A stretch of 64,000 nt of DNA. It comes from an uncultured Verrucomicrobiae bacterium (GTDB taxonomy: Bacteria > Verrucomicrobiota > Verrucomicrobiia > Chthoniobacterales > JAATET01). Below are positions 3,128-34,135 of this stretch, one piece after another; positions within the stretch are counted from its first letter, which is position 1, and each line of letters begins with the position of its first letter. A program made the translations under genes and the position numbers. Below the pieces are notes generated by a model. The model searched no databases. It worked only from the letters and a program-made list of their open reading frames with translations, and was not told where the DNA came from. Location of the stretch: the NCBI GenBank assembly GCA_963719495.1, contig CAVRCI010000006.1, positions 1-64,000 on the forward strand. The letters are read 5' to 3'.

Positions 3128-4224
3128 TCAGACCGATTGGATCGCCGATCTCGGCACCTTGTCACCCAGCGAATCCCGCAGACTCTCGTCCACCGGCACC
3201 GTCACGCGTGAGTCGGTCGGGGCACCCCCTAGCTGCTTGAAGAGGAGTTCGCTCGCTTCCGTCGCCAATCGTGGATGCGACACCCCCACGCAAGACAGGG
3301 GAGGATCGAAGAACGGAGCCAGGTCGTAATCGCCGACACCGATCACCGCCACGTCCTTCGGAATCCGCAACCCCGCTTCCTTGATCGCCCGATAAGCACC
3401 CATCGCGAGCGCGTCGGACACCGCGTAAAGTGAGTCGCAACGCTGACCGCTCCCGAGGAACGTCCGCATCGCTAAATACCCACCTTCCTCCGAAAGGGAC
3501 GGGGCCACGATCTCCGCCGGATCCTCGCCGTGAAAATGACGGGACCGCTCACCGAACATCGCACCCGCTGCCGGGTGGTCTGCGTCATCGGTTCCCCGTG
3601 TAGCACGGCCGGACGAACCCGATTTTTCCGCTGAAACAACTCCGCGACCCGTCCGCCCGACCCATCGTCTTCCACCACGCAAGGCAGCGACGCGATCACC
3701 CGGTTAATCAGCACGACCGGATACGGAAGCCGCACTCCGGCCAGGAATTCATCGTCCTCCGCGATCGTGTTCATGATGATCGCCGCGTTAAATCCGTGGC
3801 CGGTCAACAGTCCGGGCAGCTCGCGCAAGCGACCAGCGGAGAACATCTCGATCATCAACGAGTAGGTGTGCCGCCCCGTGGTCGCCACCACCTTCTCGGC
3901 TTCCGCGTGGAGGGCGGCCACGAAGTGGTTCACCAACGGAATCGGAGCTTCGAAACTCGAGATCAGCGCCAGAATAACGGTGTTTTTGACGGTCTCCCCG
4001 CTCCGCAACCGCCGCGCATTGATGTTCGGCAGATAGCCCATGCTCGCCGCCGCCTGCCGAATCGCCTCCGCCGTCGCGTCAGGAATCCGCCGCTCGACCT
4101 GCCGGTTATTTAGAACGCTCGAGACCGCGCCAACCGAAACGCCCGCCAATTCGGCAATGTCCTGCAAGTTGATTCGCCGCCCCCCGGCACGCGTCGGCGT
4201 TGGCTTCTTCTCCGCTGACTTCAT
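3128..4224 (-). CDS. LacI-family transcriptional regulator, frameshifted near 3600-3680
   Basis: N-terminal HTH (INLQDIAELAGVSVGAVSSVLNN) lies in ORF 3472-4332. The C-terminal periplasmic-binding-like domain (AVSDALAMGAYRAIKEAGLRIPKDVAVIGVGD) lies in overlapping ORF 3128-3682 in another frame. A T5 run near 3611 is a likely indel site. Confidence 0.7.
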
Positions 4225-4523
4225 CAGGGCTGCGATACTCGATCCCGATCTCTCCGAGTGCAACCGAACATATTTGGGGAATTCCTTCCTTCCCGAATTC
4301 AACGACAACCAACCCACGGGGACCGCGAGCATCCTGCTCGCCGTGCGAGGCTTCTAGCCTCGCACTCGTAGCCAAATGCGAAGCATCATATCCTTCGCGC
4401 CACGTCAAAGAACCCTCCGCCAAATGAGAGACTCTGCGACGGCCTTCCCACCGCCATGCCCATCGCCGACACCCTCGGCAACCTCGCCGCCATCGACCAA
4501 TGGCGCGCCGCCATCGGCCTCAG

Positions 4524-5168
4524 CTACTCCTGAACCTCCCGAACCGCCCGGCGTTTGACCACGCGACCACCGCCCTCGGCGACCCCATTCTCGTCCATCG
4601 TCGCCACCAGATCGTCGTCGACCCGCAGATCCACCAGCTTCCACGAGGCATCCCCGACCGCGTCGTAAAAATAAAATTTCCACCGCAACGGCAACAGCTC
4701 GCCCCGCAGCAAAAACGTCCACCGCTCCAGAAAATCCCCGACCCGCTCCTTCGACACGAGTTCGTAACCGTGGGTCGGCCCGTAGGCATCCAGCGCCGTC
4801 TGCGTCTGCATCCGCAGTTGCTTCGATTCCTCCGCCCGCGAAGCCACCACGGTTCCAGCCGTCAGCCCCTCGTAAGCCAAATCCACCCGATCCGCTTCGA
4901 TCTCGGCGAAGAACGCCTTCACCATTTCGTCCGGCATCCGCTTCGCCAGCGGAGCAGCCGGGGCCGGCGCCGACTCAGGTGATGCCGTTGCCTCGGGAGT
5001 CGCCACCGGTTCCGCCTTCAGTTCCATCGGCAGCTTCCTTGGCGTCGAGGATTCCTCCCGCACCTCCGGCGGCGCATTTTGAATCCCCCCATCCTGCGCA
5101 AACCCCACCGCGCACCACCCGACCCAGCCCAATCCGATCCAAAAACCCAGCTTCTTCATAATCTTCAC
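4524..5168 (-). CDS. Hypothetical secreted protein
   Basis: 214-aa ORF with N-terminal signal peptide (MKIMKKLGFWIGLGWVGWCAVGFA). Its start overlaps the stop of the upstream ORF by 4 nt. No recognisable family. Confidence 0.4.
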   Translation of the reverse strand: MKIMKKLGFWIGLGWVGWCAVGFAQDGGIQNAPPEVREESSTPRKLPMELKAEPVATPEATASPESAPAPAAPLAKRMPDEMVKAFFAEIEADRVDLAYEGLTAGTVVASRAEESKQLRMQTQTALDAYGPTHGYELVSKERVGDFLERWTFLLRGELLPLRWKFYFYDAVGDASWKLVDLRVDDDLVATMDENGVAEGGGRVVKRRAVREVQE

Positions 5169-10933: not shown

Positions 10934-12298
10934 TCAAGATTCAGTGACGACCGCGTCTCCGAACAGCGTGGTGTTCGACCGGCCCACGACGTTCACGTCC
11001 ATCACCTGCCCGACGTGCCGCTCCGCCCCTTCGAACACGACGATCTTGTTCGTCCTCGTCCGTCCCATCAGGCGCTCTGCATTGTGCCGACTCTCGCCCT
11101 CGCAGAGAATTTCCATCCGCGACCCCACGCACGCCTCGAGCTTCCGCTCGACGTTCGCGTTGATCAACGCCAGCAAATCCTGGTTTCGACGCTCCTTCAC
11201 GTCCTCCTCGACCTGACCCGCCATCTCCGCCGCCGGCGTATCCTTGCGCTTCGAATACCGAAAAATAAACGCGTTATCGAAGTCCGCCTCCCGCGCCAGA
11301 TCACACGTCGCTGCGAAGTCCTCCTCCGTCTCGCCCGGGAATCCCACGATCACGTCCGTCGTCACCGCGATCCCCGGTCGCACCGCCCGCAATTGCCCGA
11401 CGAGCTCCAGAAACCGCTCCCGCGTGTAGGCCCGGTGCATGGCCTTCAGCAACCGGTTCGAACCCGACTGCACCGGCAAATGCACGTGCTCCATCAGCCG
11501 CGGCAGCCGCCCGAACGCCTCCACCAGATCGGTCCGAAACCCGATCGGATGCGGCGAAGTGAACCGCACCCGCTCCAGCCCCTCCACGCCGTGCACGGCC
11601 TCCAGCAACTGCACGAACGGACTCAACCCGCCGACCTTCGGGAACTCGTGCCTCCCGTAGAGATTCACGATCTGCCCCAGCAGCGTCACCTCGCGCACCC
11701 CGCCCGCGACCAGCCCGCGCACCTCCTCGACGATCTCCCCAATGGGCCGGGACCGCTCCGCCCCGCGCGTCGATGGCACGATGCAAAAGGTGCAGTGCAT
11801 GTTGCACCCCTGCATGATCGACACAAACGCCGTCGCCTGCCGCTCCTTCAGCGTGTGCTCGCGGATCGTGTTCTGCGATTCTTCCTCCTCCTCGACGTCG
11901 ACAATGGGCAGCCGCTCGTTGTCGATCCGCGCCTCGAAATTTCGGCGCAACAACTCGTCGACGTGATCCGCCACGCGGTGAAACTTTTGCGTTCCCACCA
12001 CCAGATCGACGTGCGGCGAGGTCTGGGTCAATTCCTCCCCGCGACTCTGCGCCATGCAGCCAAGGTAACCCAGGACCAGGTGCGGCCGGTCGCGCCGGAG
12101 TTTGCGCAGCATCCCCATCTTGCCGATGGCCTTCTGCTCCGCCATGTCGCGGACGCTGCAGGTATTTAAGAGGATCACGTCCGCGTCCGACTCGTCACCC
12201 GACAGCCGGTAACCCCGACTCTCGAAGGTGCGCGCCACCTGCTCGGAATCGCGCTCGTTCATCTGGCACCCGTAGGTTTTAATGTAGACACTCGGCAT
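10934..12298 (-). CDS. miaB: tRNA-i6A37 methylthiotransferase MiaB
   Basis: 454 aa with N-terminal MTTase motif (YIKTYGCQMNERDSE), radical-SAM cysteine triad (CNMHCTFCIVP) and a C-terminal TRAM region. Confidence 0.9.
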   Translation of the reverse strand: MPSVYIKTYGCQMNERDSEQVARTFESRGYRLSGDESDADVILLNTCSVRDMAEQKAIGKMGMLRKLRRDRPHLVLGYLGCMAQSRGEELTQTSPHVDLVVGTQKFHRVADHVDELLRRNFEARIDNERLPIVDVEEEEESQNTIREHTLKERQATAFVSIMQGCNMHCTFCIVPSTRGAERSRPIGEIVEEVRGLVAGGVREVTLLGQIVNLYGRHEFPKVGGLSPFVQLLEAVHGVEGLERVRFTSPHPIGFRTDLVEAFGRLPRLMEHVHLPVQSGSNRLLKAMHRAYTRERFLELVGQLRAVRPGIAVTTDVIVGFPGETEEDFAATCDLAREADFDNAFIFRYSKRKDTPAAEMAGQVEEDVKERRNQDLLALINANVERKLEACVGSRMEILCEGESRHNAERLMGRTRTNKIVVFEGAERHVGQVMDVNVVGRSNTTLFGDAVVTES

Positions 12299-12389
12299 GG
12301 GAAACCGACGACCCTATCGCGAGAAGGGAACGATTTCCAGTTAGCCTTTGACGTCCACCCCCATCCAGTGGATCGATACGTAAAGATTC

Positions 12390-14254
12390 ATGCCACGCAC
12401 CCGAGATAACCTGAAAGCAACTCCGCAGCGAGCCGCCGGACCATCCTTCCGGAGAAGCTGCGTGCTTGGGCTCGGGGTCGGCGCGGCAACTTTCGCCCTT
12501 TGGAGCGCCAGTTTTTTGCTCGACGATCAGCCGGTTGGCCACCCGGCTTGGATCCTCGCTGCGGTCGGCTCCACGCTGATCGCGCTCGCTTATGGTCACC
12601 TCCGTCTCCGTCTTGCCTGCGCGCGCCGCCAGGACCCCGCCGGACTCGAGCTCTTCCACCGCCTCACGCGCGACCTGCCGGTGATGCTCTATCAGTTTCG
12701 CCAATATCCCACCGGACGGACATCGGTCACCCAGGCCAGCGACGCCATCCGCACCATCTACGAACTCACCCCCGAGGAGGCCCGGAAAAACGGAGTCGCC
12801 ATCATCGATCTCGTCCACCCCGAAGACCGCGACCGCATCTGGAAAAGCCTCGTGAAGACCTACCGCGACCTCACGCCCTGGCACCAGGAATACCGCGTCG
12901 TCCTCCCGCAAGCCGGCACCGTCTGGCGCGCCGCCCACGCCCGCGTCCAGCGCATGCCCGACGGGGGAACCCTCTGGCACGGATTCATCATCGACATCGA
13001 CGATCAGAAAAGAGGCGCCGCCGAGCTCGAGGCCCAGCGATGTCGCGCCGAGACCGCCGACCGGGCCAAGAGCGAATTTCTGGCCATGATGAGCCACGAT
13101 ATCCGCACGCCCATGAGCGCCGTTCTCGGCTTCGCCGATCTCCTGAACGATACCTCACTGACCGAAAACCAACGGGAATTCCTCAGTTCGATCCGCACCT
13201 CCGGCGAGACCCTCCTCCTCCTCATCAACGAAATCCTCGACCTCTCCCGGGTCGAATCCGGCACGCTCGAACTCAACGAATCGTCCTTCTTCCCTCCGCG
13301 AGTGGCTCGGCGACCTCTCCAGCATCCTGACCTTCCGCGCGGACGTCGAAAGGAATCGTCTTTCACACCGAGATCGTCGCCGGGACCCCCGGAAGCATTC
13401 ACGCCGACCGCGCCCGTCTCACCCAGGTCCTCCAAAACCTCGGCGAGAACGCCATCAAGTTCACCGACGAAGGGCGCGTCCACCTCCGCGTCTCTGCGGC
13501 AGACGGCCCCACCGAGGACTCCCTCGTCTGGACATTCACCCTCCAGGACACCGGCATCGGCATTCCCCCCGAGAAGGTCGCCGTGCTCTTCGAGCCGTTC
13601 CGCCAGGCTCGGGACAGCGATGCCAGTCGTCAGAATGGGGTCGGCCTCGGCCTCACGATCGCCCGGCGCATCAGCCAGAAAATGGGCGGCGACATCGCCG
13701 TCAGCAGCCGACTCGGCACCGGAACCTGCATGACCGTGACCATCCAGTCACGCCGTCAGGTCAGTCCGGCCCTCCCCGCGACAGCGGAATCCGTTGACCC
13801 GGACAGCCCGATCGACTCCGATCCCGTTGATTTCAAAGGCCTGAGAGTTCTTTTGGTGGAAGACCATCCCCTCAACCAGCGGCTGGCCGTTCTGACTCTC
13901 GATCATCTCGGCTGCCGCTGCGACACCGTCGGCGACGGCAGCGAGGCGATTCAGGCCTGCCGCGAGAACGCCTACGATCTCGTGCTCATGGATTTCGAAC
14001 TTCCAACCGTCAACGGCCCGGACGCCACTCGCGAAATCCGCGCTCTCCAATCCCAAGGCCGGATTGCCGGCGACGATCGCCACCTACCCATCGTCGCCCT
14101 CACCGCCAATGCCCTGCCCGAGCAGAGGCAGGAATGCCTCGACGCCGGCATGGACGACGTCCTCACCAAGCCCATCCGCCGGCCCAAGTTGATCAGATTA
14201 CTGGAATCCATCCGCGATCGTGCCCCCGCACCCCATCGCTCCAACCTCGCATGA
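12390..14254 (+). CDS. Hybrid sensor histidine kinase (PAS, HisKA, HATPase, C-terminal receiver), two frameshifts near 13290-13580
   Basis: The H box SHDIRTPMSAVLGFADLL is present. HATPase motifs (LGENAIKFTDEGRVHL, DTGIGIPPEKVAVLFEPF, GVGLGLTIA) are spread over three frames. The receiver shows VLLVEDHPLNQ...DLVLMDFELP...KP. Confidence 0.75.
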
Positions 14255-22729: not shown

Positions 22730-22860
22730 GGGTCGACCATTCAATCCACCCGCCGACATCACGCAAGCGAGGAAATCCACATTCTCGGAAAGTGCTGAGA
22801 AAAAACCTCGGTTTTTGTAAATGCACAAACCGTCCTCCTCCCTCTAGTCTCCGCCTCGCC

Positions 22861-23511
22861 ATGAACGATCTGATCCACGCCGCACTCTTCCCGGTGAATC
22901 TCCCGTTCACCATCGTCCTCCTTGGACTCGCCGCCTATTGGATCCTCGTTAGCTTCGGCATCTTCGATCTGGACAGCAGCAGCGCCGACGGGGACATCGC
23001 GCTCGTCGACTCCGACGCCGATACCGACATTCACGACGTTCCCTTCAGCGGCTTCCTCCATTTTCTCAACGTCGGCGAAGTCCCGCTCCTCGTCATCGTC
23101 ACCGTCCTCACTCTCTCCATGTGGGTCTGCGGCCTGTTGGCAAATTTTTTCCTCAACCCAGCCGACAGCCTCCTCCTCGGTCTCGTCTACCTGATCCCCA
23201 GCTTCGCCGTCAGCGTGGTGGTCACCCGCTACACCACGATGCCGCTCCGCAGTGTCTTCCGGCTCCTCAACGCCCCCGAGCCCACCGACCGCACCCTGAT
23301 CGGACAGACCTGCATCGTCCGCACCCGCGAAGCCAACGCGACCTACGGCCAGGCCGAAGTCGCCTCCGACGGCGCCCCCCTCACCATTCAGGTCCGCACC
23401 CGCCCCGACGAAACCCTCCCGTCCGGCACCACTGCCCTGATCGTCAGCCAGGACGCCGACACCTCCGCCTACCTCATTCGCCCCGTCACCGCTTCCAATT
23501 TCGACCAATAA
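22861..23511 (+). CDS. NfeD/YqiJ-like membrane protein with C-terminal OB-fold
   Basis: N-terminal TM helices, then a beta-rich C-terminus (GQTCIVRTREANATYGQAEVASDGAPLTIQVRT). It sits directly upstream of the flotillin gene, the classic NfeD-SPFH pairing. Confidence 0.65.
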   Translation: MNDLIHAALFPVNLPFTIVLLGLAAYWILVSFGIFDLDSSSADGDIALVDSDADTDIHDVPFSGFLHFLNVGEVPLLVIVTVLTLSMWVCGLLANFFLNPADSLLLGLVYLIPSFAVSVVVTRYTTMPLRSVFRLLNAPEPTDRTLIGQTCIVRTREANATYGQAEVASDGAPLTIQVRTRPDETLPSGTTALIVSQDADTSAYLIRPVTASNFDQ

Positions 23512-23541
23512 CCAACCACCAAAACCCAACCAACACCACCC

Positions 23542-25545
23542 ATGGATTTCATCACCCCGCTCGCCATCCTCATCGGACTCTTCGTCCTCCTCATCATCTT
23601 CGGCTTCATGGTCATGATCATCCGGTGCTACCGGAAGGTTGACCAAGGCACCGCCCTCGTCCGCAATGGCATGGGCGGCACGAAAGTCTCCTTCTCCGGC
23701 ATTGTCGTCCTCCCGGTCATTCACAAAGCCGAGTTCATGGACATCTCGGTCAAGCGCGTCGAAATCGACCGCCACGGCCAGTTCGGATTGATCTGCAAAG
23801 ACAACATGCGCGCCGACATCAAGGTCGCCTTCTTCGTTCGCGTGAATCAGACCTCCCAGGACGTCCTCAAGGTCGCCCAATCCATCGGCTGCGTCCGCGC
23901 CTCCAGTCAGGAAGCCATGGTCGAACTCTTCGACGCGAAATTCTCCGAAGCCCTCAAAACCGTCGGCCGCCAATTCGATTTCGTCGAACTCTACAACTCC
24001 CGCGAACTCCTCAAGGACGACATCATCAAACTCATCGGCACCGACCTCAACGGCTTCGTCCTGGAAGACGTCGCCATCGATTACCTCGAGCAGACCCCGC
24101 TCAACCTCCTCAACGCCGACAACATCCTCGACTCCGAGGGCATCAAAAAAATCACCGAGCTCACCGCCGCGCAGAAAGTCCTCGCCAATAACATCGACCG
24201 CGAGCGTGAGAAAACCATCAAGCAACAGGACGTCGAAGCCCGCGAAGCCATTCTCGAACTCGAGCGTCAGCAAAAAGAAGCCGAGGAAAAACAGGCCCGC
24301 GAGATCGCCATCGTCACCGCCCGCGAGCAGGCCGAGTCCAAGAAAGTCCAGGCCGAGCAACTCCTCCGCTCCGAGCAGGCCCGCATCGCCGCCGAGGAAG
24401 AGATCGCCATCGCCGAGGAAAACAAGGCCCGCCAGGTCATCGTCGCCGCCCGCAACAAAGAGCGCACCGACGCCGTCGAGACCGAGCGCGTCGAGCGCGA
24501 CCGCATGGTCGAGCGCACCGAGCGCGAGCGCATCGTCGAACTCGCCGTCATCGAGAAAAACAAAGCCGTCGAGGCCGAACAAAAAGTCATCCAGGACGTC
24601 ATTCGCGAACGCCTCGTCGTCGAAAAAGCCGCCGTCGAAGAGCAGGAACGAATCAACGACACCCAGGCCTTCGCCGCCGCCGAGCGTCAGAAAAAGGTCC
24701 AGATCACCGAAGCCGAGATGCAGGCCGAGCAGTCACTGGTGAAAGACATCAAAGCCGCCGAAGCCTCCAAGAAAGCCGCCGAACTCCGCGCCCAGGAGGA
24801 CCTCTTCGCCAAGGTCACCAACGCCGAAGCCGAAAAGGAGTCCGCCGAGCTCCACGCCGAGGAAATCCTCATCGCCGCCGAAGCGCAACAAGCCGCCGCG
24901 ACCAAGCAAGCCCAGGCCCGCCGCACGCTCGCCGAAGCCACCAGCGCCGAAGAGGCCGCCCTCGGGCTGGCCGAGGCTCAGGTCATGGAGGCCAAAGCCG
25001 CCGCCGCCGAGAAGCAATACGCCGCCGAGGCCAAGGGTATCGCCGATAAGGCCGAGAGCATGAAAATGCTCGACGGCGTCGGCAAGGAGCACGAGGAGTT
25101 CAAGCTCCGCCTCGAGAAGGACAAGGAAGTCGAACTCGCGCACATCCACGTCCGCAAGGACATCGCCGAGCAGCAGGCCAACGTCCTCGGCGAGGCGCTC
25201 AAATACGCGAAGATCGACATCGTCGGCGGCGAGGCGCAGTTCTTCGATCGCATCACCAATGCGATCACCAACGGCAAGGCCATCGACCGCCTCGTCGACA
25301 ACAGCCGCACTCTCACCGACGTGAAGGACACCTTCTTCACCGGCGACGCCGACGATTTCCGCGAGCATCTGGACGACCTGATCAAAAAATTTGGGATCAA
25401 AACCGAAGACCTCAAAAACCTCACCATCGCCGCCGCCCTCGGCAAGCTCATCGCCCAAACCGACGACCTGGAGAAGCGCACCTTCCTCGGCAACCTCCTC
25501 CACCAGGCCAAAACCCTCGGCGTAGAGGGCGACCGCATGAACTAA
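23542..25545 (+). CDS. Flotillin-like SPFH/Band-7 protein (YqiK/FloT family)
   Basis: 667 aa with N-terminal TM and SPFH domain (YRKVDQGTALVRNGMGGTKVSFSGIVVLPVIHKAEFMDISVKRVEI), then a long EA-rich coiled coil and a conserved flotillin C-terminus. Confidence 0.85.
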   Translation: MDFITPLAILIGLFVLLIIFGFMVMIIRCYRKVDQGTALVRNGMGGTKVSFSGIVVLPVIHKAEFMDISVKRVEIDRHGQFGLICKDNMRADIKVAFFVRVNQTSQDVLKVAQSIGCVRASSQEAMVELFDAKFSEALKTVGRQFDFVELYNSRELLKDDIIKLIGTDLNGFVLEDVAIDYLEQTPLNLLNADNILDSEGIKKITELTAAQKVLANNIDREREKTIKQQDVEAREAILELERQQKEAEEKQAREIAIVTAREQAESKKVQAEQLLRSEQARIAAEEEIAIAEENKARQVIVAARNKERTDAVETERVERDRMVERTERERIVELAVIEKNKAVEAEQKVIQDVIRERLVVEKAAVEEQERINDTQAFAAAERQKKVQITEAEMQAEQSLVKDIKAAEASKKAAELRAQEDLFAKVTNAEAEKESAELHAEEILIAAEAQQAAATKQAQARRTLAEATSAEEAALGLAEAQVMEAKAAAAEKQYAAEAKGIADKAESMKMLDGVGKEHEEFKLRLEKDKEVELAHIHVRKDIAEQQANVLGEALKYAKIDIVGGEAQFFDRITNAITNGKAIDRLVDNSRTLTDVKDTFFTGDADDFREHLDDLIKKFGIKTEDLKNLTIAAALGKLIAQTDDLEKRTFLGNLLHQAKTLGVEGDRMN

Positions 25546-25572
25546 GGAGTGGCGACATCTTGTCGCCAACAA
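25546..25572. repeat. 27-bp palindrome-containing direct repeat, left copy (GGAGTGGCGACATCTTGTCGCCAACAA)
   Basis: 7-bp stem GGCGACA / TGTCGCC with 3-nt loop, immediately after the flotillin stop. A near-identical copy lies at 26319-26345 after vapC. Confidence 0.6.
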
Positions 25573-25590
25573 GGAGCTTTACGCGCGTTT

Positions 25591-25618
25591 TTGACATCAA
25601 ACCTCCATCGCTATAAAT
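25591..25618 (+). promoter_or_regulatory. Sigma70-like promoter for the vapBC cassette
   Basis: TTGACA at ~25591-25596, 15-16 nt spacer, then TATAAAT at ~25612-25618, about 10 nt upstream of the vapB ATG. Confidence 0.4.
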
Positions 25619-25626
25619 TCTCCATC

Positions 25627-25869
25627 ATGACGAAAACCCAAATTCAACTCCCCGAAGACCTCTACAACCGGGTGAAAGACTTCGCCCGCGAGCGCGAATG
25701 GTCCCTCGCCGAAACCTTCCGCCGTGGTGTCGAAGAACTCCTTCGACACTACCCCGCCAAGCCGCACGGCGGCACGCGATTGGCATCCGCCAAAAGGACA
25801 AAATCTTGGATGCAAGCCGATGTCCGAAGCCGAGCTGAAGCGCCACGCGCAGGAGGATTTCGACTGACC
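25627..25869 (+). CDS. vapB: VapB-like ribbon-helix-helix antitoxin, C-terminus uncertain
   Basis: MTKTQIQLPEDLYNRVKDFAREREWSLAETFRRGVEELL is a typical RHH/CopG antitoxin N-terminus. An alternative frame ends ...MSEAELKRHAQEDFD* five nt before vapC, so a frameshift in the 3' part is possible. Confidence 0.5.
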
Positions 25870-25873
25870 GCTC

Positions 25874-26314
25874 ATGCTCGCCATCGACACAAACATTCTT
25901 TTTCACAGTTACAACGACGACTCTCACATTCACCAGACAGCCTACGAATGGGTGGACGGCATCGGCGGACGGGAGGACATCGTCATCTCCGAATTTGTTC
26001 TCGTCGAACTCTATCGACTCATCCGCAATCCGACGGTCATGGACAAACCGCTCTCACCGTCAGCCGCAGTCGCCGTGATCGCTTCCTACCGCTCCCACCC
26101 TCGCTGGCGCATCGCGGGATTTCCCACCCAATCCCGCGAACTCCACGACGAGCTCTACACCCGCATGGCGAAACCCACCATCGCCTACCGCCGCATCTAC
26201 GACACCCGTCTCGCGCTCAGCCTCCTAGCCGCTGGCGTCACCGAAATCGCCACGACCAACGTGAAAGACTTCAAGGACTTCGGATTCACCAAAGTCTGGA
26301 ACCCGCTCAAATAG
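25874..26314 (+). CDS. vapC: PIN-domain toxin VapC
   Basis: 146 aa. MLAIDTNILF has the first PIN acidic residue and EFVLVELYRL the second. TTNVKDFKDF has the C-terminal acidic residue. Confidence 0.8.
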   Translation: MLAIDTNILFHSYNDDSHIHQTAYEWVDGIGGREDIVISEFVLVELYRLIRNPTVMDKPLSPSAAVAVIASYRSHPRWRIAGFPTQSRELHDELYTRMAKPTIAYRRIYDTRLALSLLAAGVTEIATTNVKDFKDFGFTKVWNPLK

Positions 26315-26318
26315 CCCC

Positions 26319-26345
26319 GGAGTGGCGACATCCTGTCGCCAACAA
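26319..26345. repeat. 27-bp palindrome-containing direct repeat, right copy (GGAGTGGCGACATCCTGTCGCCAACAA)
   Basis: Matches 25546-25572 at 26 of 27 nt. It lies between the vapC stop and the start of the giant ATPase gene. Confidence 0.6.
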
Positions 26346-26377
26346 CCAAAGGCACAGCCTGAAATCACCTCACGAAA

Positions 26378-29300
26378 ATGCCGGACCCCACTCCCACCCC
26401 ACCAGAGGCCACCACCCTCGAATCCGGCACCTACGAGATCCTCCGCCAACGTCTCACCGACCACGGCACGGACCTCCGCACCCGGCTCGAGTCGCTCAAT
26501 ACCGCCCGCCACGAGGTCTTCGGGTCCATCGAGACCGCCCTCGTCGCCACCGACCGGATCACCACCGAAAACAACTGCCTCCCCCGCGACCTCGTTGCCA
26601 TCGGTGCCAACCGCTTCCTCTTCGGTTACAACGTCAAACTCGGCCTCCGCACCGAGACCAAGCTCGCCGACGTGTTCTCCGCCTACGAGTGGAGCGACCG
26701 CGCCTTCCACCCCGTCGCGCTCGATTTCCTCGAGACTTCCGAATTCCTCACCGACTTCCGCAGCCTCTTTAAATACTACCGCGAGACCGTCTTCGCGAAG
26801 TTCGGCTTCATCGGGCCGCACCTCTTCATGGTCTTCCGCGTCGGTCAGCGCACCGAGGACATCAAGACCTTCAAATGGGCGCTCGACCACGGCAAATTCA
26901 CCTACCTCGGCAACCGCAGCGACCACGAATTCGTCTTCCCACCCCAGCACGAATTCACCTGGACCCGGACGCACCGCGACGCCCACCGGTCGGGCAGCCA
27001 CCCCCACATCTCCGTCGACGATCGTCTCTTCGTCGAGTGCACCGGCGGCGACCTCACCATCAAGATCGAGGACAACACCACCACCGGCACCGGCATCCAC
27101 AGCGAGCCCGTCGAGCAGGCCGACCAGACCCTCGACGACGCCGAGATCTTCTACGCCACCCTCGGCAACCTGATTCTCCTCAAAATTCGTCCCTACCAGG
27201 AAAAGGCCCACCGCTACTTCGTCTTCAACGACAAACTCGATCAAGTCCACCGCATCGACGCCATCGAAGAAAGCTGCGTCCTCCTGCCCGACGACCACGG
27301 CATCATCTTCTCCCGCGGCTACTACCTCCGCAATGGCGAGCTCCGCCTCTTCGACGGCAACGACACCGACATGCTCTTCGAACGCCGGATCCAATCGCCC
27401 AACCGCGAGGATTTTCTCTACGTTTTCTACAACCGCCAGCGCGGCGACTACATCCTGATGGCCTACAACGTCATCTCCCAGCGCGTGGAAACCCCCATCC
27501 ACTGCAACGGCTTCTCAACCTTCGAAAACGGCGAGCTCGCCCTCTTCCGCACCGACCCCGAGCCGCAAAAACACCACGCCGTCCAGATCTGGCAAACCCC
27601 CTTCACCGGTCCCGCCTTCGAGACCGCCACCCAGACCGACAGCTACCTCTACAAAATCGGCAACGCCGCCCTCGTCCGCACGATGGCCGAGTGCCAGGAA
27701 ATCCTCGCCCTGCTCGAACGCGACGATTCCTACGCCGGTCTCTACCACGACCTGCAGAAGCGTTCCGGCGACCTCCTCGACGCCACGTTCTGGCTCGACC
27801 GCGAAGAAACCCATCATCTCGACAAGCCCCTCGCCGCCCTCCGGGACGCCGCCGCCCGGACCGTCGACGAATACGAAAAAGTCCGCGACCTCCGCCGCCA
27901 CGCCACCGCCGAGATCGAGCGCGTCGGCACCACCGCCCGCTCGCTCCTCGACGAACTCCTCCCCGGCGAACTCGACACCATCGACGCCTACGTCGCGGCC
28001 CTGACCCAACTCCGCACCACCCGCGGCGAGCTGATTACGCTGCGCGATCTCCGCTACGCCGACCTCCCCGCCATCGACGAGCTGGAACGGGCGGTCACCG
28101 AAAAATCCGAAACCCTCTCCGCCGACTGCGTCCAATTTCTCCTCACCGACACCGCCCTCGAACCCTACCGTCAGCGCACCACCGAGCTCGAAAGCGCCTC
28201 CGCCGAGATCACCAAGGTCGTCGAAGGCCGCGAGCTCGAGCAACGCATCGAGCAGGGCGGCACCGAACTCGAACTCCTCATCGAGATCGTCAGCAATCTC
28301 GACATCGCCGACGCCACCGAGACCACCCGCATCGTCGAGAGCATCTCCGCCATCTACGCGAGCCTCAACCAGACCCTCGCCCGCCTCCGGCAACGCATTC
28401 GCGAACTCCAGACCACCGAAGGCGCCGCCCAGTTCGCCGCCCAGCTCCGCCTTGTTAGCCAAGCTGTGGCGAACTCTCTCGAGCGCTGCGACACCCCCGC
28501 GAAGTGCGACGAATTCCTCGGCCGCCTCATGGTTCAGGTCGAAGAACTCGAAAGCCGCTTCGCCGGATTCGACGACTACCTCATCGACCTCGCCGAGAAA
28601 CGGACCGAAATCCAATCCGCCTTCGAGAGCAAGAAGCTCGCCCTCATCGACGCCCGCAACCGCCGCGCCACCGCTCTCCAATCCGTCGCCGACCGGCTCC
28701 TCAAGAGCATCGCCCACCGCGTCGGCACCCTCGATGACGTCTCCGCCATCAACGCCTTCTACGCCAGCGACCAGATGGTCGACCGCCTCCGCGACGTCGT
28801 CACCCAGCTCCTCGACCTCGGCGACCCCGTCAAATCCGACGATCTCCAGGGCCGTCTCAAGACAATCCGCGAAGACGCCGTCCGCCAACTTCGCGACCGC
28901 AAGGAACTCTTCGTCGGCGGCGGCGACGTGATCGCTTTCGGCGAGCACCACTTCAACGTCAACGTCCAACCCGTCGAGCTGACCGTCCTCCAGCGCGACG
29001 ACCACCTCGCCCTCCACCTCACCGGCACCCGACTCTTCGAAACCGTCGAAGACGAGGAGATCAATCAACTCCAACCCGTCTGGTCGCTCGAAGTGGTCTC
29101 CGAGAGCCCGAGCGTCTATCGCGCCGAATACCTCGCCCACCAGGCGCTCGGTGAGTTGGACGACGTCACCGCCGAGGCCGTCGCCGCCTTCATGGCTCCA
29201 CGCTACGCCGAGGGTTACGTCAAAGGCGTCCACGACCACGATGCCACCCTCATCCTCACCGCGCTGGCCGGGATTCACCACTCCATCGGTACCCTCCGCA

Positions 29301-31348
29301 CCCACCCCGAGGCCCGCGCCCTTGCCGTGACCGCCTGGGAACTCCACCCCGACGAGGACCTCCGGAATCAACTCGCCAGCTTCGGTGCCGCCCGCACTCT
29401 CTTCCCGATCGTGGACGCCCAGCCCGGCTACCTCGCCCGGCTGGAGTCGATTTGCCGCAAGGTCGATTTCTTTCCAGCCGCCCGCGTCCCCGAAGCCGCC
29501 GCCTACCTCTTCGACGTCCTCACCGCAGACGGGGCCTTCGCCTTCAGCCACGACGCCTACTCCGCCTACGACGCCTTCGGCAAATCGCTCGCCGAACAGC
29601 ACGCCGCCGACCGATTTGCCGCGCTCCGCGAACCGCTCCGCGACGACTTCGTCCGCCACTTCGAACTCCTACGCGATTGGGTCGGCGGCTTCCTTGCCGC
29701 CACCGATCCCGCCCGCGCGCGCTACCGCGACGAAGTCGTCCTCCTCCTTCTCCGCGACCTCCACAACCGCAAGGACGTCCAACCCATCTCGCTCCAGACC
29801 GAGATAAAAGGCCTCCTCGGCCAGCACCCGCGCGTCGACGGTGGCACCCTCACGCTCGACTACCTCGATTTCACCGACCGCCTCCGCCGTCACCAGACGG
29901 AGACCGCCCCCGCCTTCACCGAATTCCAAGCCGCCAAACGCCGCCTCGTCGAGACCGCCCAGCGCCGCCTCCGCACCGAAGAATTCAAACCCCGCGTCCT
30001 TTCGTCCTTTGTCCGCAACCAACTCGTCGACAAAGTCTTTCTCCCGCTCATCGGTGCGAATCTCGCCAAGCAAATGGGCACCGCCGGCGAGAACACCCGC
30101 ACCGACCGCATGGGGTTGCTTCTCCTCATCTCCCCGCCCGGCTACGGCAAGACCACGCTCATGGAATACGTCGCCGACCGCCTCGGCGTCGTCTTCATGA
30201 AGATCAACGGCCCCTCACTCGGCCACGAAGTCACCAACCTCGACCCCGAACAAGCCCCGAACTCCGCCGCCCGCGAGGAGCTCAAAAAACTCAATCTCGC
30301 CTTCGAGATGGGCGACAACGTCATGATCTATCTGGACGACATCCAGCACTGCGCGCCCGAGTTGCTGCAGAAATTCATCTCCCTCTGCGACGGCCAACGC
30401 CGCATCGAAGGCGTCCACAACGGCGTCGCCCGCACCTATGACCTGCGCGGGCGCAAGGTCGCCGTCGTCATGGCCGGCAACCCCTACACCGAGAGCGGCG
30501 AGAAATTCCGCATCCCCGACATGCTTTCCAACCGCGCCGACACCTACAACCTCGGCGACCTCGCCACCGGCGCGCACCTCGACGCCTTCAAGCTCAGCTA
30601 CCTCGAGAACGCGCTGACCTCCAATCCGATCCTCAACGGCCTCGCCACCAAGAGCCGTCCCGACATCCTCGGCGTCATCAAAATCGCGCAGACCGGAGCC
30701 ACCGACACCGTCGCGCTCGAGGCCAGCTACTCTCCCCGCGAACTGGAAGACCTCGTGGCCGTGATGAAAAAGCTCATCCGCATTCGCGACGTCATCCTCA
30801 CCGTCAACAGCGCCTACATCGCCTCCGCCGGCCAGGCCGACGCCTACCGCACCGAGCCGCCATTTTTGCTTCAGGGTTCCTATCGCAACATGAACCGCCT
30901 CGCGGAAAAGATCGTCCCCGTGATGAACGATGCCGAGCTGGAAGCGCTCATCGCGGACCACTACCGCAACGAAGCCCAGACGCTGACGACTGGCGCCGAG
31001 GCCAACCTCCTCAAGCTCCGCGAACTCCTCGGCAAATTGACGCCCGAGGAAAAGACGCGCTGGGAGGAGATTAAGAAAACGTTCACCCGCAACCTGCTGG
31101 TCGCGGGCGGCGACGACAACGACCCCGTCTCCCAGGTCGTCCGCCAGCTCTCCAGCATCCAGGCGACCATCCAGGCCGCCGCCGACAAACCCGCGCCAGC
31201 GTCCGCATCGCCAGGTCTCGGCAGCGCCACCGGAAAACGAGTCGCCATCAACCCCGACACCCTCCGCAAAATCTGGGACTTGATCGAAAACCAGGACGCG
31301 ACCGACGCCCCGGAGACCGACACCATCATCGAAGTCCCCGAGCGCTGA
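26378..31348 (+). CDS. Giant (1656 aa) uncharacterised protein with C-terminal MoxR/McrB/dynein-like AAA+ ATPase domain
   Basis: Single uninterrupted ORF. Walker A LLISPPGYGKTTLMEYVADRLG (~aa 1225), Walker B VMIYLDDIQH and sensor region VAVVMAGNPYTESGEKFRIPDMLSNRADTY. There is a beta-rich N-terminal ~430 aa and a long helical middle region. It lies downstream of the nfeD-like and flotillin genes on the same strand. Confidence 0.7.
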   Translation: MPDPTPTPPEATTLESGTYEILRQRLTDHGTDLRTRLESLNTARHEVFGSIETALVATDRITTENNCLPRDLVAIGANRFLFGYNVKLGLRTETKLADVFSAYEWSDRAFHPVALDFLETSEFLTDFRSLFKYYRETVFAKFGFIGPHLFMVFRVGQRTEDIKTFKWALDHGKFTYLGNRSDHEFVFPPQHEFTWTRTHRDAHRSGSHPHISVDDRLFVECTGGDLTIKIEDNTTTGTGIHSEPVEQADQTLDDAEIFYATLGNLILLKIRPYQEKAHRYFVFNDKLDQVHRIDAIEESCVLLPDDHGIIFSRGYYLRNGELRLFDGNDTDMLFERRIQSPNREDFLYVFYNRQRGDYILMAYNVISQRVETPIHCNGFSTFENGELALFRTDPEPQKHHAVQIWQTPFTGPAFETATQTDSYLYKIGNAALVRTMAECQEILALLERDDSYAGLYHDLQKRSGDLLDATFWLDREETHHLDKPLAALRDAAARTVDEYEKVRDLRRHATAEIERVGTTARSLLDELLPGELDTIDAYVAALTQLRTTRGELITLRDLRYADLPAIDELERAVTEKSETLSADCVQFLLTDTALEPYRQRTTELESASAEITKVVEGRELEQRIEQGGTELELLIEIVSNLDIADATETTRIVESISAIYASLNQTLARLRQRIRELQTTEGAAQFAAQLRLVSQAVANSLERCDTPAKCDEFLGRLMVQVEELESRFAGFDDYLIDLAEKRTEIQSAFESKKLALIDARNRRATALQSVADRLLKSIAHRVGTLDDVSAINAFYASDQMVDRLRDVVTQLLDLGDPVKSDDLQGRLKTIREDAVRQLRDRKELFVGGGDVIAFGEHHFNVNVQPVELTVLQRDDHLALHLTGTRLFETVEDEEINQLQPVWSLEVVSESPSVYRAEYLAHQALGELDDVTAEAVAAFMAPRYAEGYVKGVHDHDATLILTALAGIHHSIGTLRTHPEARALAVTAWELHPDEDLRNQLASFGAARTLFPIVDAQPGYLARLESICRKVDFFPAARVPEAAAYLFDVLTADGAFAFSHDAYSAYDAFGKSLAEQHAADRFAALREPLRDDFVRHFELLRDWVGGFLAATDPARARYRDEVVLLLLRDLHNRKDVQPISLQTEIKGLLGQHPRVDGGTLTLDYLDFTDRLRRHQTETAPAFTEFQAAKRRLVETAQRRLRTEEFKPRVLSSFVRNQLVDKVFLPLIGANLAKQMGTAGENTRTDRMGLLLLISPPGYGKTTLMEYVADRLGVVFMKINGPSLGHEVTNLDPEQAPNSAAREELKKLNLAFEMGDNVMIYLDDIQHCAPELLQKFISLCDGQRRIEGVHNGVARTYDLRGRKVAVVMAGNPYTESGEKFRIPDMLSNRADTYNLGDLATGAHLDAFKLSYLENALTSNPILNGLATKSRPDILGVIKIAQTGATDTVALEASYSPRELEDLVAVMKKLIRIRDVILTVNSAYIASAGQADAYRTEPPFLLQGSYRNMNRLAEKIVPVMNDAELEALIADHYRNEAQTLTTGAEANLLKLRELLGKLTPEEKTRWEEIKKTFTRNLLVAGGDDNDPVSQVVRQLSSIQATIQAAADKPAPASASPGLGSATGKRVAINPDTLRKIWDLIENQDATDAPETDTIIEVPER

Positions 31349-31501
31349 CCCGCCAAAAATTTCTTCCTGATTTGCCCGCGAACAACGCGAATAGCGCAAA
31401 TCAATCAACCCGGAGGGACGGCATCCTGCCGTCCAATCGAACTCAAGACCTCGCCTTCACCTTCATCCATTCGCGCCCATCCGCGCAATTCGCGGGCTCC
31501 C
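30639..31501. repeat. ~865-bp direct repeat, copy 1 (3' end of the giant ATPase gene plus ~150 bp downstream)
   Basis: About 95% identical by eye to 33271-34135. Covers the last ~235 codons of the gene plus the downstream hairpin region. Confidence 0.8.
31416..31434 (+). terminator. GC-rich hairpin downstream of the giant ATPase gene (GGACGGCA-TCC-TGCCGTCC)
   Basis: Perfect 8-bp stem with 3-nt loop, ~65 nt after the stop and preceded by GGAGG. It has the same architecture as the vapBC-flanking hairpins. No U tract follows, so its terminator function is uncertain. Confidence 0.3.
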
Positions 31502-33270: not shown

Positions 33271-34135
33271 GCCTCGTCACCAAGAGCCGGCCCGACATCC
33301 TCGGCGTCATCAAAATCGCGCAGACCGGGACCACCGACACCGTCACGCTCGAGGCCAGCTACTCACCCGCGAATTGGAAGACCTCGTGGCCGTGATGAAA
33401 AAGCTCATCCGCATCCGCGACGTCATCCTCACCGTCAACAGCGCCTACATCGCCTCCGCCGGCCAGGCCGACGCCTACCGCACCGAGCCGCCGTTTTTGC
33501 TCCAGGGTTCCTATCGCAACATGAACCGCCTCGCGGAAAAGATCGTCCCCGTGATGAACGATGCCGAGCTCGAAGCGCTCATCGCCGACCACTACCGCAA
33601 CGAAGCCCAGACGCTCACCACCGGAGCCGAAGCCAACCTCCTCAAGCTCCGCGAGCTCCTCGGCAAATTGACGCCCGAGGAAAAGACGCGCTGGGAGGAG
33701 ATCAAGAAAACGTTCACCCGCAACCTGCTGGTCGCGGGCGGCGACGACAACGACCCCGTCACCCAGGTCATCCGCCAACTCTCCAGCATCCAGGCGACCA
33801 TCCAGGCCGCTGCCTAAAAACCCGCGCCAGCGTCCGCGCCGCCAGCCCTCGGCAACGCAGGCGGCAATCGAGTCGCCATCAACCCCGACACCCTCCGCAA
33901 GATCTGGGACTTGATCGAAAACCAGGACGCGACCGACGCCCCGGCCACCGACACCATCATCGAAGTCCCCGAGCGCTGACCCGCCAAGAATTTCTTCCTG
34001 ATTTGCCCGCGAATTACGAATAGCGCGAAACAATCAGCGCGGAGGGACGGCATCCTGCTGTTCCCAATAGCGTTCGGGTCCCTGCCTTCGACGCCCTCCC
34101 CCCTTCGCGCTCATTCGCGCAATTCGCGGGCTCCC
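33271..34135. repeat. ~865-bp direct repeat, copy 2
   Basis: See copy 1. Both copies end at ...cattcgcgcaattcgcgggctccc. Confidence 0.8.
33279..33978 (+). pseudogene. Degenerate duplicate of the 3' end of the giant ATPase gene
   Basis: Aligns to 30647-31348. A 1-nt deletion (ctactcacccgcgaattgg vs ctactctccccgcgaactgg) shifts the frame. A premature TAA (gccgctgcctaaaaaccc vs gccgccgccgacaaaccc) also occurs. ORF 33374-33817 encodes a near-identical 147-aa segment. Confidence 0.75.

Follow-up and report, generated by a model that had tools for sequence, protein, structure and literature searches.

A 64-kb stretch of DNA from an uncultured Verrucomicrobiae bacterium (contig CAVRCI010000006.1, G+C 62%; referred to here, at its full length, as the window) carries at 22861-31348 on the + strand the genes for an NfeD/YqiJ-like membrane protein, a flotillin and a giant AAA+ ATPase. 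Comparison of their sequences and gene order across genomes supports a conserved NfeD-flotillin-giant AAA+ module. The module has already been described by comparative genomics and is not a new kind. As proposed in a preliminary description of this DNA, the three long open reading frames (ORFs) are co-directional on the + strand; G+C at their third codon positions is 0.82-0.86, a coding-type codon bias. All three ORFs are full-length and keep every family-invariant residue.

Components of the module, with coordinates in the window, strand, length or extent in amino acids (aa) and basis of assignment; TM, transmembrane.
22861..23511, + strand: NfeD/YqiJ-like inner-membrane protein, 216 aa (PF21001, three hydrophobic segments, hhalign to YqiJ)
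23542..25545, + strand: flotillin, YqiK-type SPFH protein, 667 aa (Band_7 on the N-terminal 253 aa, hhalign to YqiK)
26378..31348, + strand: giant soluble AAA+ protein, 1656 aa (Pfam matches, homologs, no TM segment)
26471..27787, + strand: DUF3686 domain of the giant protein, aa 32-470 (PF12458, AlphaFold2 model)
28154..28405, + strand: DUF7902 of the giant protein, aa 593-676, within the central region, aa ~411-1190 (PF25472, E 4e-25)
30095..30637, + strand: AAA+ core of the giant protein, aa ~1240-1420 (Walker A, Walker B, pre-sensor-1 beta-hairpin, putative sensor-1, R1386)

Conservation of the gene order and the longer operon

The linkage sample was drawn from GTDB r232 (one genome per species) with a 14-sequence alignment of the giant protein; it covered at least 595 species, and 80 loci were kept. 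Of the 66 loci having at least 2.6 kb of upstream DNA, 61 have a co-directional flotillin gene immediately 5' of the giant gene, the orthologs being 40-62% identical. Where the upstream DNA reached at least 3.6 kb (62 loci), NfeD was detectable upstream of flotillin in 53, and the order nfeD then flotillin, adjacent, co-directional and 30 bp apart in the window, is kept in these 53 loci. The loci belong to seven phyla: Verrucomicrobiota, Planctomycetota, Bacteroidota, Desulfobacterota, Omnitrophota, Kiritimatiellota and Clostridia. In other species, flotillin and the giant gene are mostly 60-350 bp apart. General adjacency of the giant homologs to SPFH/NfeD genes, the first check suggested in the preliminary description, is thus borne out. 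Synteny refutes the contrary case, that they are never linked elsewhere. The module is real.

Two distant members, with giant proteins 36% and ~27-47% identical, have kept a flotillin homolog (43% and 28% identical) directly upstream. A gene for a protein of 212-245 aa lies upstream of flotillin in both; tblastn matched it to NfeD at locus L085 and gave no such match at L084, where a TelA-family gene (12001-13221) is located directly downstream of the triad. Identities of the giant protein and of flotillin fall together (86/93, 55/67, 54/55, 36/43 and ~30/28%). Over 62 loci the correlation between the two is weak (Spearman 0.32, p 0.01) because the range of identity is narrow.

In public annotation, the flotillin and NfeD of this operon have no precomputed Pfam hit at several loci, and one is named 'hypothetical protein' (L082 4011-6713; L083 3237-6041; L084 4239-6890; L085 3987-6805). 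The linkage is therefore invisible to automated neighbourhood tools.

An operon of this type was reported in the comparative genomics of phage-shock proteins by Ravi, Anantharaman, Aravind, Gennaro and colleagues (Ravi et al. 2024, mSystems, PMC11237479; preprint 2020). Its order is CesT/Tir, PspA, a 3-TM YqiJ/YuaF protein, Band-7/flotillin and a 'beta-propeller + coiled-coil + AAA+ ATPase' protein, with Dokdonia donghaensis ANH61663.1 as the prototype. Abbreviated operons with flotillin, YqiJ/YuaF and sometimes the ATPase were found to be more widely distributed, and the Band-7, CesT and AAA+ proteins were read as assembly chaperones for membrane complexes (PMC11237479). The window shares with that operon the three core genes in the same order and the domain architecture of the ATPase. 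It differs in lacking CesT/Tir, PspA and phospholipase D, and in having vapBC between the flotillin and ATPase genes. Neither PspA nor CesT was detected by tblastn anywhere in the 64 kb, phospholipase D is not part of the operon, and the genes upstream of nfeD are unrelated and lie on the opposite strand. Judged by sequence, the window thus carries the short, abbreviated three-gene form, and its giant protein is the 'novel AAA+ ATPase' of PMC11237479. The statement in the preliminary description that this is not a characterised system holds for experimental work, none of which was found in the searchable literature, but not for in silico work, given that report.

Clustering of all ORFs in the 80 loci revealed the long form in 15 Bacteroidota loci, with PspA (PF04012, E 4e-41) directly upstream of nfeD and CesT_Tir_1 (E 4e-54) preceding PspA. 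PspA also adjoins the triad in two Verrucomicrobiota loci, and in all, at least 18 loci encode it within or beside the operon. The possibility that PspA or CesT occupies the 0.7-1.5 kb gaps between the Bacteroidota flotillin and giant genes was rejected, since unrelated small genes are found there and PspA and CesT lie upstream of nfeD.

Other genes were observed around these operons. A divergent regulator with HTH_3 and peptidase S24 domains (LexA/CI-like) lies beyond CesT_Tir_1 in 13 of the 15 Bacteroidota long-form loci, for example at 3935-4732 on the - strand of L021. A CII-like (Phage_CP76) gene is located at ~6170-6970 in L025, L030 and L039; its cluster comprises six loci, some of them from Verrucomicrobiales and Kiritimatiellota. 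The position of such phage- or SOS-repressor-like regulators next to the operon suggests stress-inducible derepression. At the Verrucomicrobiota locus L083, a divergent PspA gene and a 559-aa AAA gene (151-2750) lie upstream of the triad; like the TelA-family gene of L084, these are membrane-stress genes.

Properties of the three proteins

The ORF of the NfeD-like protein, defined mechanically, opens at a GTG at 22792. The ATG at 22861 agrees with the public gene call (216 aa), and alignments of homologs likewise begin at this position. YqiJ_N (PF21001) matches the protein with 27.5 bits against a cutoff of 23 (E 3.9e-6), and its three hydrophobic segments correspond to three TM helices. When a 14-sequence profile of the protein and its orthologs was compared with E. 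coli YqiJ by hhalign, the probability was 96.8% (E 3e-10) over residues 4-197 of 209. The signal for an OB-fold at the C-terminus is weak (PF01957, E 0.093, below cutoff; profile against the B. subtilis YuaF structure 2K14, E 0.1), and the hhalign alignment with YqiJ runs on through this region. From sequence comparison, the C-terminal region is a probable OB-fold. The loop between TM1 and TM2 (window 22927-23010, aa ~23-50) contains conserved alternating aspartates with the consensus DLDxxDxDxDxxDxDxD, and may be a cation-binding or partner-binding site.

Flotillin at full length gave no match in Pfam or NCBIfam scans, presumably because its coiled coil, rich in E, A and K, triggers composition filters. 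When residues 1-253 were scanned alone, Band_7 was matched with 34 bits against a cutoff of 23.6 (E 3.9e-8). The protein has one TM segment at residues 1-33, followed by the SPFH domain and the long coiled coil; beyond them, the C-terminal region is conserved. The Pfam 'Flot' C-terminal domain (PF15975) was not detected on aa 251-667 or 401-667 at E up to 0.1; the C-terminus is conserved within the subfamily despite this. An ortholog profile matched E. coli YqiK by hhalign with a probability of 100% (E 3e-41, 32% identity over 401 columns). Single-sequence searches of the PDB with flotillin and NfeD were empty, and profile searches gave weak matches only, to QmcA and YuaF; the homology of the pair to E. 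coli YqiK/YqiJ is settled by the hhalign matches.

The pair thus has the same order as its homologs E. coli yqiJK and B. subtilis yuaF-floT, with the same 3-TM NfeD and N-terminally anchored flotillin. Unlike in the window, no giant ATPase gene lies 3' of E. coli yqiK, where sibD/ibsD and sibE/ibsE (type I toxin-antitoxin) are found instead. The window flotillin is also longer than YqiK (667 versus 553 aa), and is missed by Pfam at full length.

The giant protein matches PF12458 DUF3686 (E 6e-181), PF25472 DUF7902 (E 4e-25) and AAA/AAA_5 at ~aa 1248-1370 (E 2e-7). It has more than 3700 homologs. Alignments to homologs reach 100% coverage, and identity across phyla is 45-55%. No TM segment was found (maximum hydropathy 1.27). 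In family matches, in falling within the ~1600-1900 aa size range and in its intact Walker A and B motifs, the window protein is a member of the DUF3686-DUF7902-AAA+ family. When 1.84 billion representatives were searched exhaustively by HMMER with the propeller domain, 739 clusters (50% identity) were obtained; DUF3686 lies at the N-terminus of all full-length matches, which are ~1600-1900 aa long, and this indicates a fixed architecture.

The N-terminal part was modelled with AlphaFold2 (aa 1-484, 41-sequence alignment) at a predicted local distance difference test score (pLDDT) of 86. The model comprises a 33-residue helix (16-48), a beta-propeller (~54-406) and a helical hairpin; the beta-rich N-terminal region expected from the letters alone is thus a helix followed by a propeller. 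Compared with the PDB, the propeller gave generic WD40-type/propeller matches and no specific relative. Between aa 471 and 1190, DUF7902 was the sole family match. For aa 1177-1656 (pLDDT 80), the model has a beta-hairpin ahead of sensor 1 in its AAA+ core; a helical lid, a C-terminal extension and a disordered tail follow. Walker A (GYGKTT) occupies residues 1255-1260; the preliminary description had misplaced it at about aa 1225. Walker B is YLDD at 1318-1321 (window 30329-30340), with a D-D pair instead of D-E that is invariant in the family. Its hhhDD form (YLDDIQH), unlike the usual AAA+ hhhhDE, resembles the DnaA-type 'IDDIQ' box. Residues 1341-1356 form the pre-sensor-1 beta-hairpin, N1368 is the putative sensor-1 residue and R1386 is conserved. 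By its AAA+ fold with this hairpin, the ATPase belongs to the MoxR/midasin/dynein/McrB group, the clade named in the preliminary description. Profile searches of the PDB gave only P-loop-level matches (p97, RuvB), so that the giant protein has no solved relative.

Conservation, measured as mean top-residue frequency, is highest in the AAA+ core (0.85, against 0.74 for the propeller and for aa 677-845). The C-terminal tail varies among the homologs. Ankyrin repeats were observed in P0075, P0078, P0084, P0101 and P0102 and TPR in P0080; where checked (P0102, P0080), the extra repeats are fused to this tail, a hint that adaptors are recruited there.

Inserted cassettes, hairpins and the duplicated 3' end

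In the window, the flotillin and giant genes are separated by a gap of 832 bp. Two 27-nt direct repeats in this gap are spaced 772 bp apart. The difference is 60 bp, and the arithmetic of the preliminary description, which put the two genes about 60 bp apart before the vapBC insertion, holds.

Other elements between and after the genes of the module, in window coordinates.
25547..25573, + strand: 27-nt repeat, copy 1 (GGAGTGGCGACATCTTGTCGCCAACAA), an 8-bp hairpin with no U-tract
25627..26314, + strand: inserted vapBC toxin-antitoxin cassette, outside the module (TIGR00028, PIN)
26319..26345, + strand: 27-nt hairpin repeat, copy 2, directly 3' of the vapC stop codon (sequence, fold)
31410..31437, + strand: third hairpin of the same type (GGAGGGACGGCATCCTGCCGTC), ~60 nt 3' of the giant stop codon (fold, -16.9 kcal/mol)

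The vapC gene (25874-26314), encoding a PIN protein of 146 aa, is intact (TIGR00028 E 2e-24, PIN E 4e-7). The vapB gene (25627-25875), encoding a ribbon-helix-helix protein, has a +1 frameshift after ...HYPAKP. The closest relative of the window is a Chthoniobacterales metagenome-assembled genome (MAG; locus L081), whose giant protein is intact and 86% identical. It carries an orthologous vapBC at the same site, at ~85% nucleotide identity and without the flanking 27-nt repeats; the insertion thus predates the split of the two and is not recent. In L081 as well, vapC is intact, and vapB (1595-1834) has a TAG at codon 8. The disruption of vapB independently in two relatives could be attributed either to a decaying cassette or to MAG assembly errors.

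In different lineages, unrelated small genes of selfish or accessory type have repeatedly landed in the short spacer between the flotillin and giant genes, and the sib/ibs loci 3' of E. coli yqiK offer a parallel. The genes observed there are vapBC (window and L081), AbiEii, a DUF559 endonuclease, DMP19, DUF3997, DUF3784 and a lipoprotein gene. The regions concerned are window 25546-26377, L006 8496-9964, L018 7956-9442, L022 6834-8239, L034 9245-9925 and L036 9122-10000.

The first hairpin, beginning 5 nt 3' of the stop codon of flotillin, has an 8-bp G+C-rich stem without a U-tract (-12.8 kcal/mol); the second folds at -17.8 kcal/mol (z -4.1). The shared motif consists of GGAG, an 8-bp G+C-rich stem and a 3-nt loop, UCU or UCC (25551-25567, 26324-26340 and 31417-31433). 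It occurs three times in the 64 kb, each time just after a stop codon (of flotillin, vapC and the giant gene), with a degenerate copy near 34046, and was absent from 86 related loci, the closest relative included. The hairpin could act as a non-canonical terminator or in RNA stability, or could be a repeat specific to this genome. No canonical terminator was found on the + strand between the flotillin and giant genes by a consensus scan. One sigma-70-like promoter match lies before vapB (25591-25619); shuffled sequence gives equally many.

The downstream duplication noted in the preliminary description is real. The segment 30639-31501 recurs at 33271-34135 as an 863-bp direct repeat with ~95% identity, comprising the 3' 710 bp of the giant gene and ~150 bp downstream of it. 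The copy joined to the giant gene is the intact one; the distal copy is a pseudogene fragment with a frameshift and a stop. The two copies flank 1.77 kb of DNA of lower G+C (0.54) with a match to a HigB-like toxin and a gene for a SecB-like chaperone. This duplication is the signature of a single-crossover insertion of cargo of the toxin-antitoxin-chaperone type. At the same downstream position, L081 has a different cassette (PIN and PhdYeFM).

Function of the module and alternative explanations

SPFH proteins form large membrane-attached cages that partner AAA+ machines, as in the enclosure of FtsH by HflK/C, and NfeD proteins are their obligate partners. ATPases of the MoxR class remodel specific partner proteins, and PspA is an ESCRT-III-type membrane-repair polymer. 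We give an even chance to the reading that the giant protein is a cytoplasmic remodelling ATPase whose substrates, under envelope stress, are membrane assemblies of flotillin and NfeD (and PspA). An equivalent interpretation of the operon has been published (PMC11237479). In this mechanism, flotillin would be held by its single N-terminal TM anchor, with the SPFH domain and coiled coil facing the cytoplasm and building a large oligomer that lines the inner membrane face as a scaffold, and the 3-TM NfeD/YqiJ protein would be its partner within the scaffold. The soluble giant ATPase would use its propeller and central region to dock on this flotillin/NfeD scaffold. With its single AAA+ module, which probably forms a ring oligomer, it would spend ATP to assemble, open or disassemble the scaffold; where PspA is co-encoded, the ESCRT-III-type polymers of PspA may be a further substrate. 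Together the three proteins would be a device for envelope stress or membrane maintenance, comparable in function to Vps4/ESCRT-III or HflK/C-FtsH. The physical interaction, the oligomeric state, the substrate of the ATPase and the triggering stress are the parts of this mechanism that we infer. The label 'mechano-ATPase' given to the giant protein in the preliminary description is likewise an analogy.

Known systems resemble the module in part. In HflK/C-FtsH, and in prohibitin with the m-AAA protease, an SPFH membrane scaffold is paired with an AAA+ ATPase. FtsH, however, is a classical-clade AAA protein that is anchored in the membrane and has an M41 protease, whereas the giant protein has no TM segment and no peptidase family match in Pfam and is of another AAA+ clade. 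Vps4/ESCRT-III and PspF/PspA are further cases of a dedicated AAA+ ATPase linked to a membrane-remodelling polymer, PspA being of the ESCRT-III superfamily. Vps4 is a classical-clade AAA protein with an MIT domain and PspF a sigma-54 activator; neither architecture is seen in the giant protein. MoxR proteins (CbbQ, NorQ and RavA, with midasin, dynein and McrB as relatives) are stand-alone proteins of ~300 aa with a VWA/MIDAS partner. Unlike them, the giant protein carries its AAA+ module at the end of 1656 aa, together with a propeller and a central region, and has D-D in Walker B.

Several observations weigh against a remodelling ATPase acting on the scaffold. The VWA/MIDAS partner usual for MoxR ATPases is not encoded here: no VWA family was found in Pfam scans of the neighbouring ORFs, and clustering of the 80 loci gave only NfeD, flotillin, PspA, CesT and HTH-S24. 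The D-D in place of D-E in Walker B means that the catalytic rate could be unusual. PspA is absent from the window, and 5 of 66 loci have no flotillin gene adjacent to the giant gene. A hairpin and the inserted cassette lie between the flotillin and ATPase genes, so that co-transcription in this organism is a possibility only. Literature searches by the Pfam names of the giant family (DUF3686, PF12458) returned no papers, and no evidence on interaction, expression or phenotype was found.

The scaffold could instead be a platform only, with the ATPase as a chaperone or extractase for other membrane proteins in the flotillin microdomain, serving quality control or complex assembly. The arrangement would then resemble FtsH in HflK/C minus the protease, and neither the scaffold nor PspA would be a substrate. 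CbbQ and NorQ, relatives in the MoxR class, are established to mature or repair specific client enzymes, and the ankyrin/TPR fusions at the C-terminus of some homologs suggest variable adaptors or clients. The assembly-chaperone reading of Band-7, CesT and AAA+ proteins (PMC11237479) points the same way. Beyond PspA and CesT, however, no conserved client gene lies beside the triad in the 80 loci, and conservation along the whole protein (45-55% identity across phyla) is more in keeping with a partner that does not vary than with changing clients. We consider this explanation rather unlikely. It is improbable that the triad serves in anti-phage defence of an abortive-infection-like kind, or in another type of conflict, by sensing perturbation of the membrane by phage. 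Genes of toxin-antitoxin or nuclease type are found nearby (vapBC and the HigB/SecB-like cargo here; AbiEii, DUF559 and DMP19 in the gaps of other species), and phage-repressor-like regulators (HTH-S24, CII-like) adjoin the operon. But PADLOC-DB v2 gave no significant match (LmuB 2e-4, IetA 1e-3 and mad8 5e-3, on coiled-coil or P-loop stretches), 2.9 million viral contigs contained no relative, and a Pfam scan detected no effector domain (nuclease, protease or TIR). The very high conservation and the fixed architecture across phyla are also unlike fast-evolving defence genes, and the flanking genes are ordinary housekeeping genes that differ between species. On account of the negative PADLOC and viral-contig scans, defence and phage readings were downgraded. 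The preliminary description had pointed to stress and phage-defence contexts; the link with stress stands through the PspA and CesT neighbours, but that with phage defence does not.

The insertions themselves raise the question of whether the module is decaying in this genome, vapBC and the hairpin having uncoupled the ATPase gene from the flotillin gene so that the products do not act jointly. The 832-bp gap with its foreign cassette, the sigma-70-like promoter match and the stable hairpin after the flotillin stop codon would fit such decay, as would the duplication of the giant gene 3' end by the insertion. Yet the three ORFs are full-length with all family-invariant residues kept, and the 3'-end copy joined to the giant gene is the intact one. 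The occurrence of the same cassette in L081, beside an intact giant gene 86% identical in its product, argues that the arrangement is stable under selection, and decay appears very unlikely. Least credible of all is that the giant protein is a DNA repair ATPase with incidental flotillin adjacency. The names 'DNA repair ATPase' and 'ATPase involved in DNA repair' are used in NCBI and Pfam, weak RuvB P-loop matches exist and LexA-like HTH-S24 regulators lie beside the Bacteroidota operons. The RuvB models, however, match the P-loop only, at a tenth of the cutoff. The giant protein gave no full-length match to RuvB or another repair ATPase and no DNA-binding domain, and a literature search with 'DNA repair ATPase' and flotillin returned no papers. 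The database name is a mislabel for which no support was found.

If the giant protein does remodel the scaffold, a more specific form of this reading can be put forward, as a tentative and on balance doubtful proposal: the DUF3686 protein may be a dedicated flotillin motor, a MoxR-type ring of ~1 MDa whose six propeller arms would grip, open or dismantle the flotillin/NfeD cage. We know of no ATPase dedicated to flotillin. Such a motor, if true, would be the first known ATP-driven regulator of a flotillin scaffold of any kind; it would also be a bacterial counterpart to Vps4/ESCRT-III, made of unrelated components.

The module has value for annotation, as its ATPase is mislabelled, the coiled coil of its flotillin suppresses the Band_7 match and the partners of the ATPase are left without a Pfam hit. 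The operon is present in several hundred sampled species from at least seven phyla. Widely distributed and mis-annotated, it is a reasonable experimental target and a moderately surprising finding only. For the question of how flotillin/SPFH scaffolds are assembled, opened and turned over, the three-gene operon would offer a compact genetic system.

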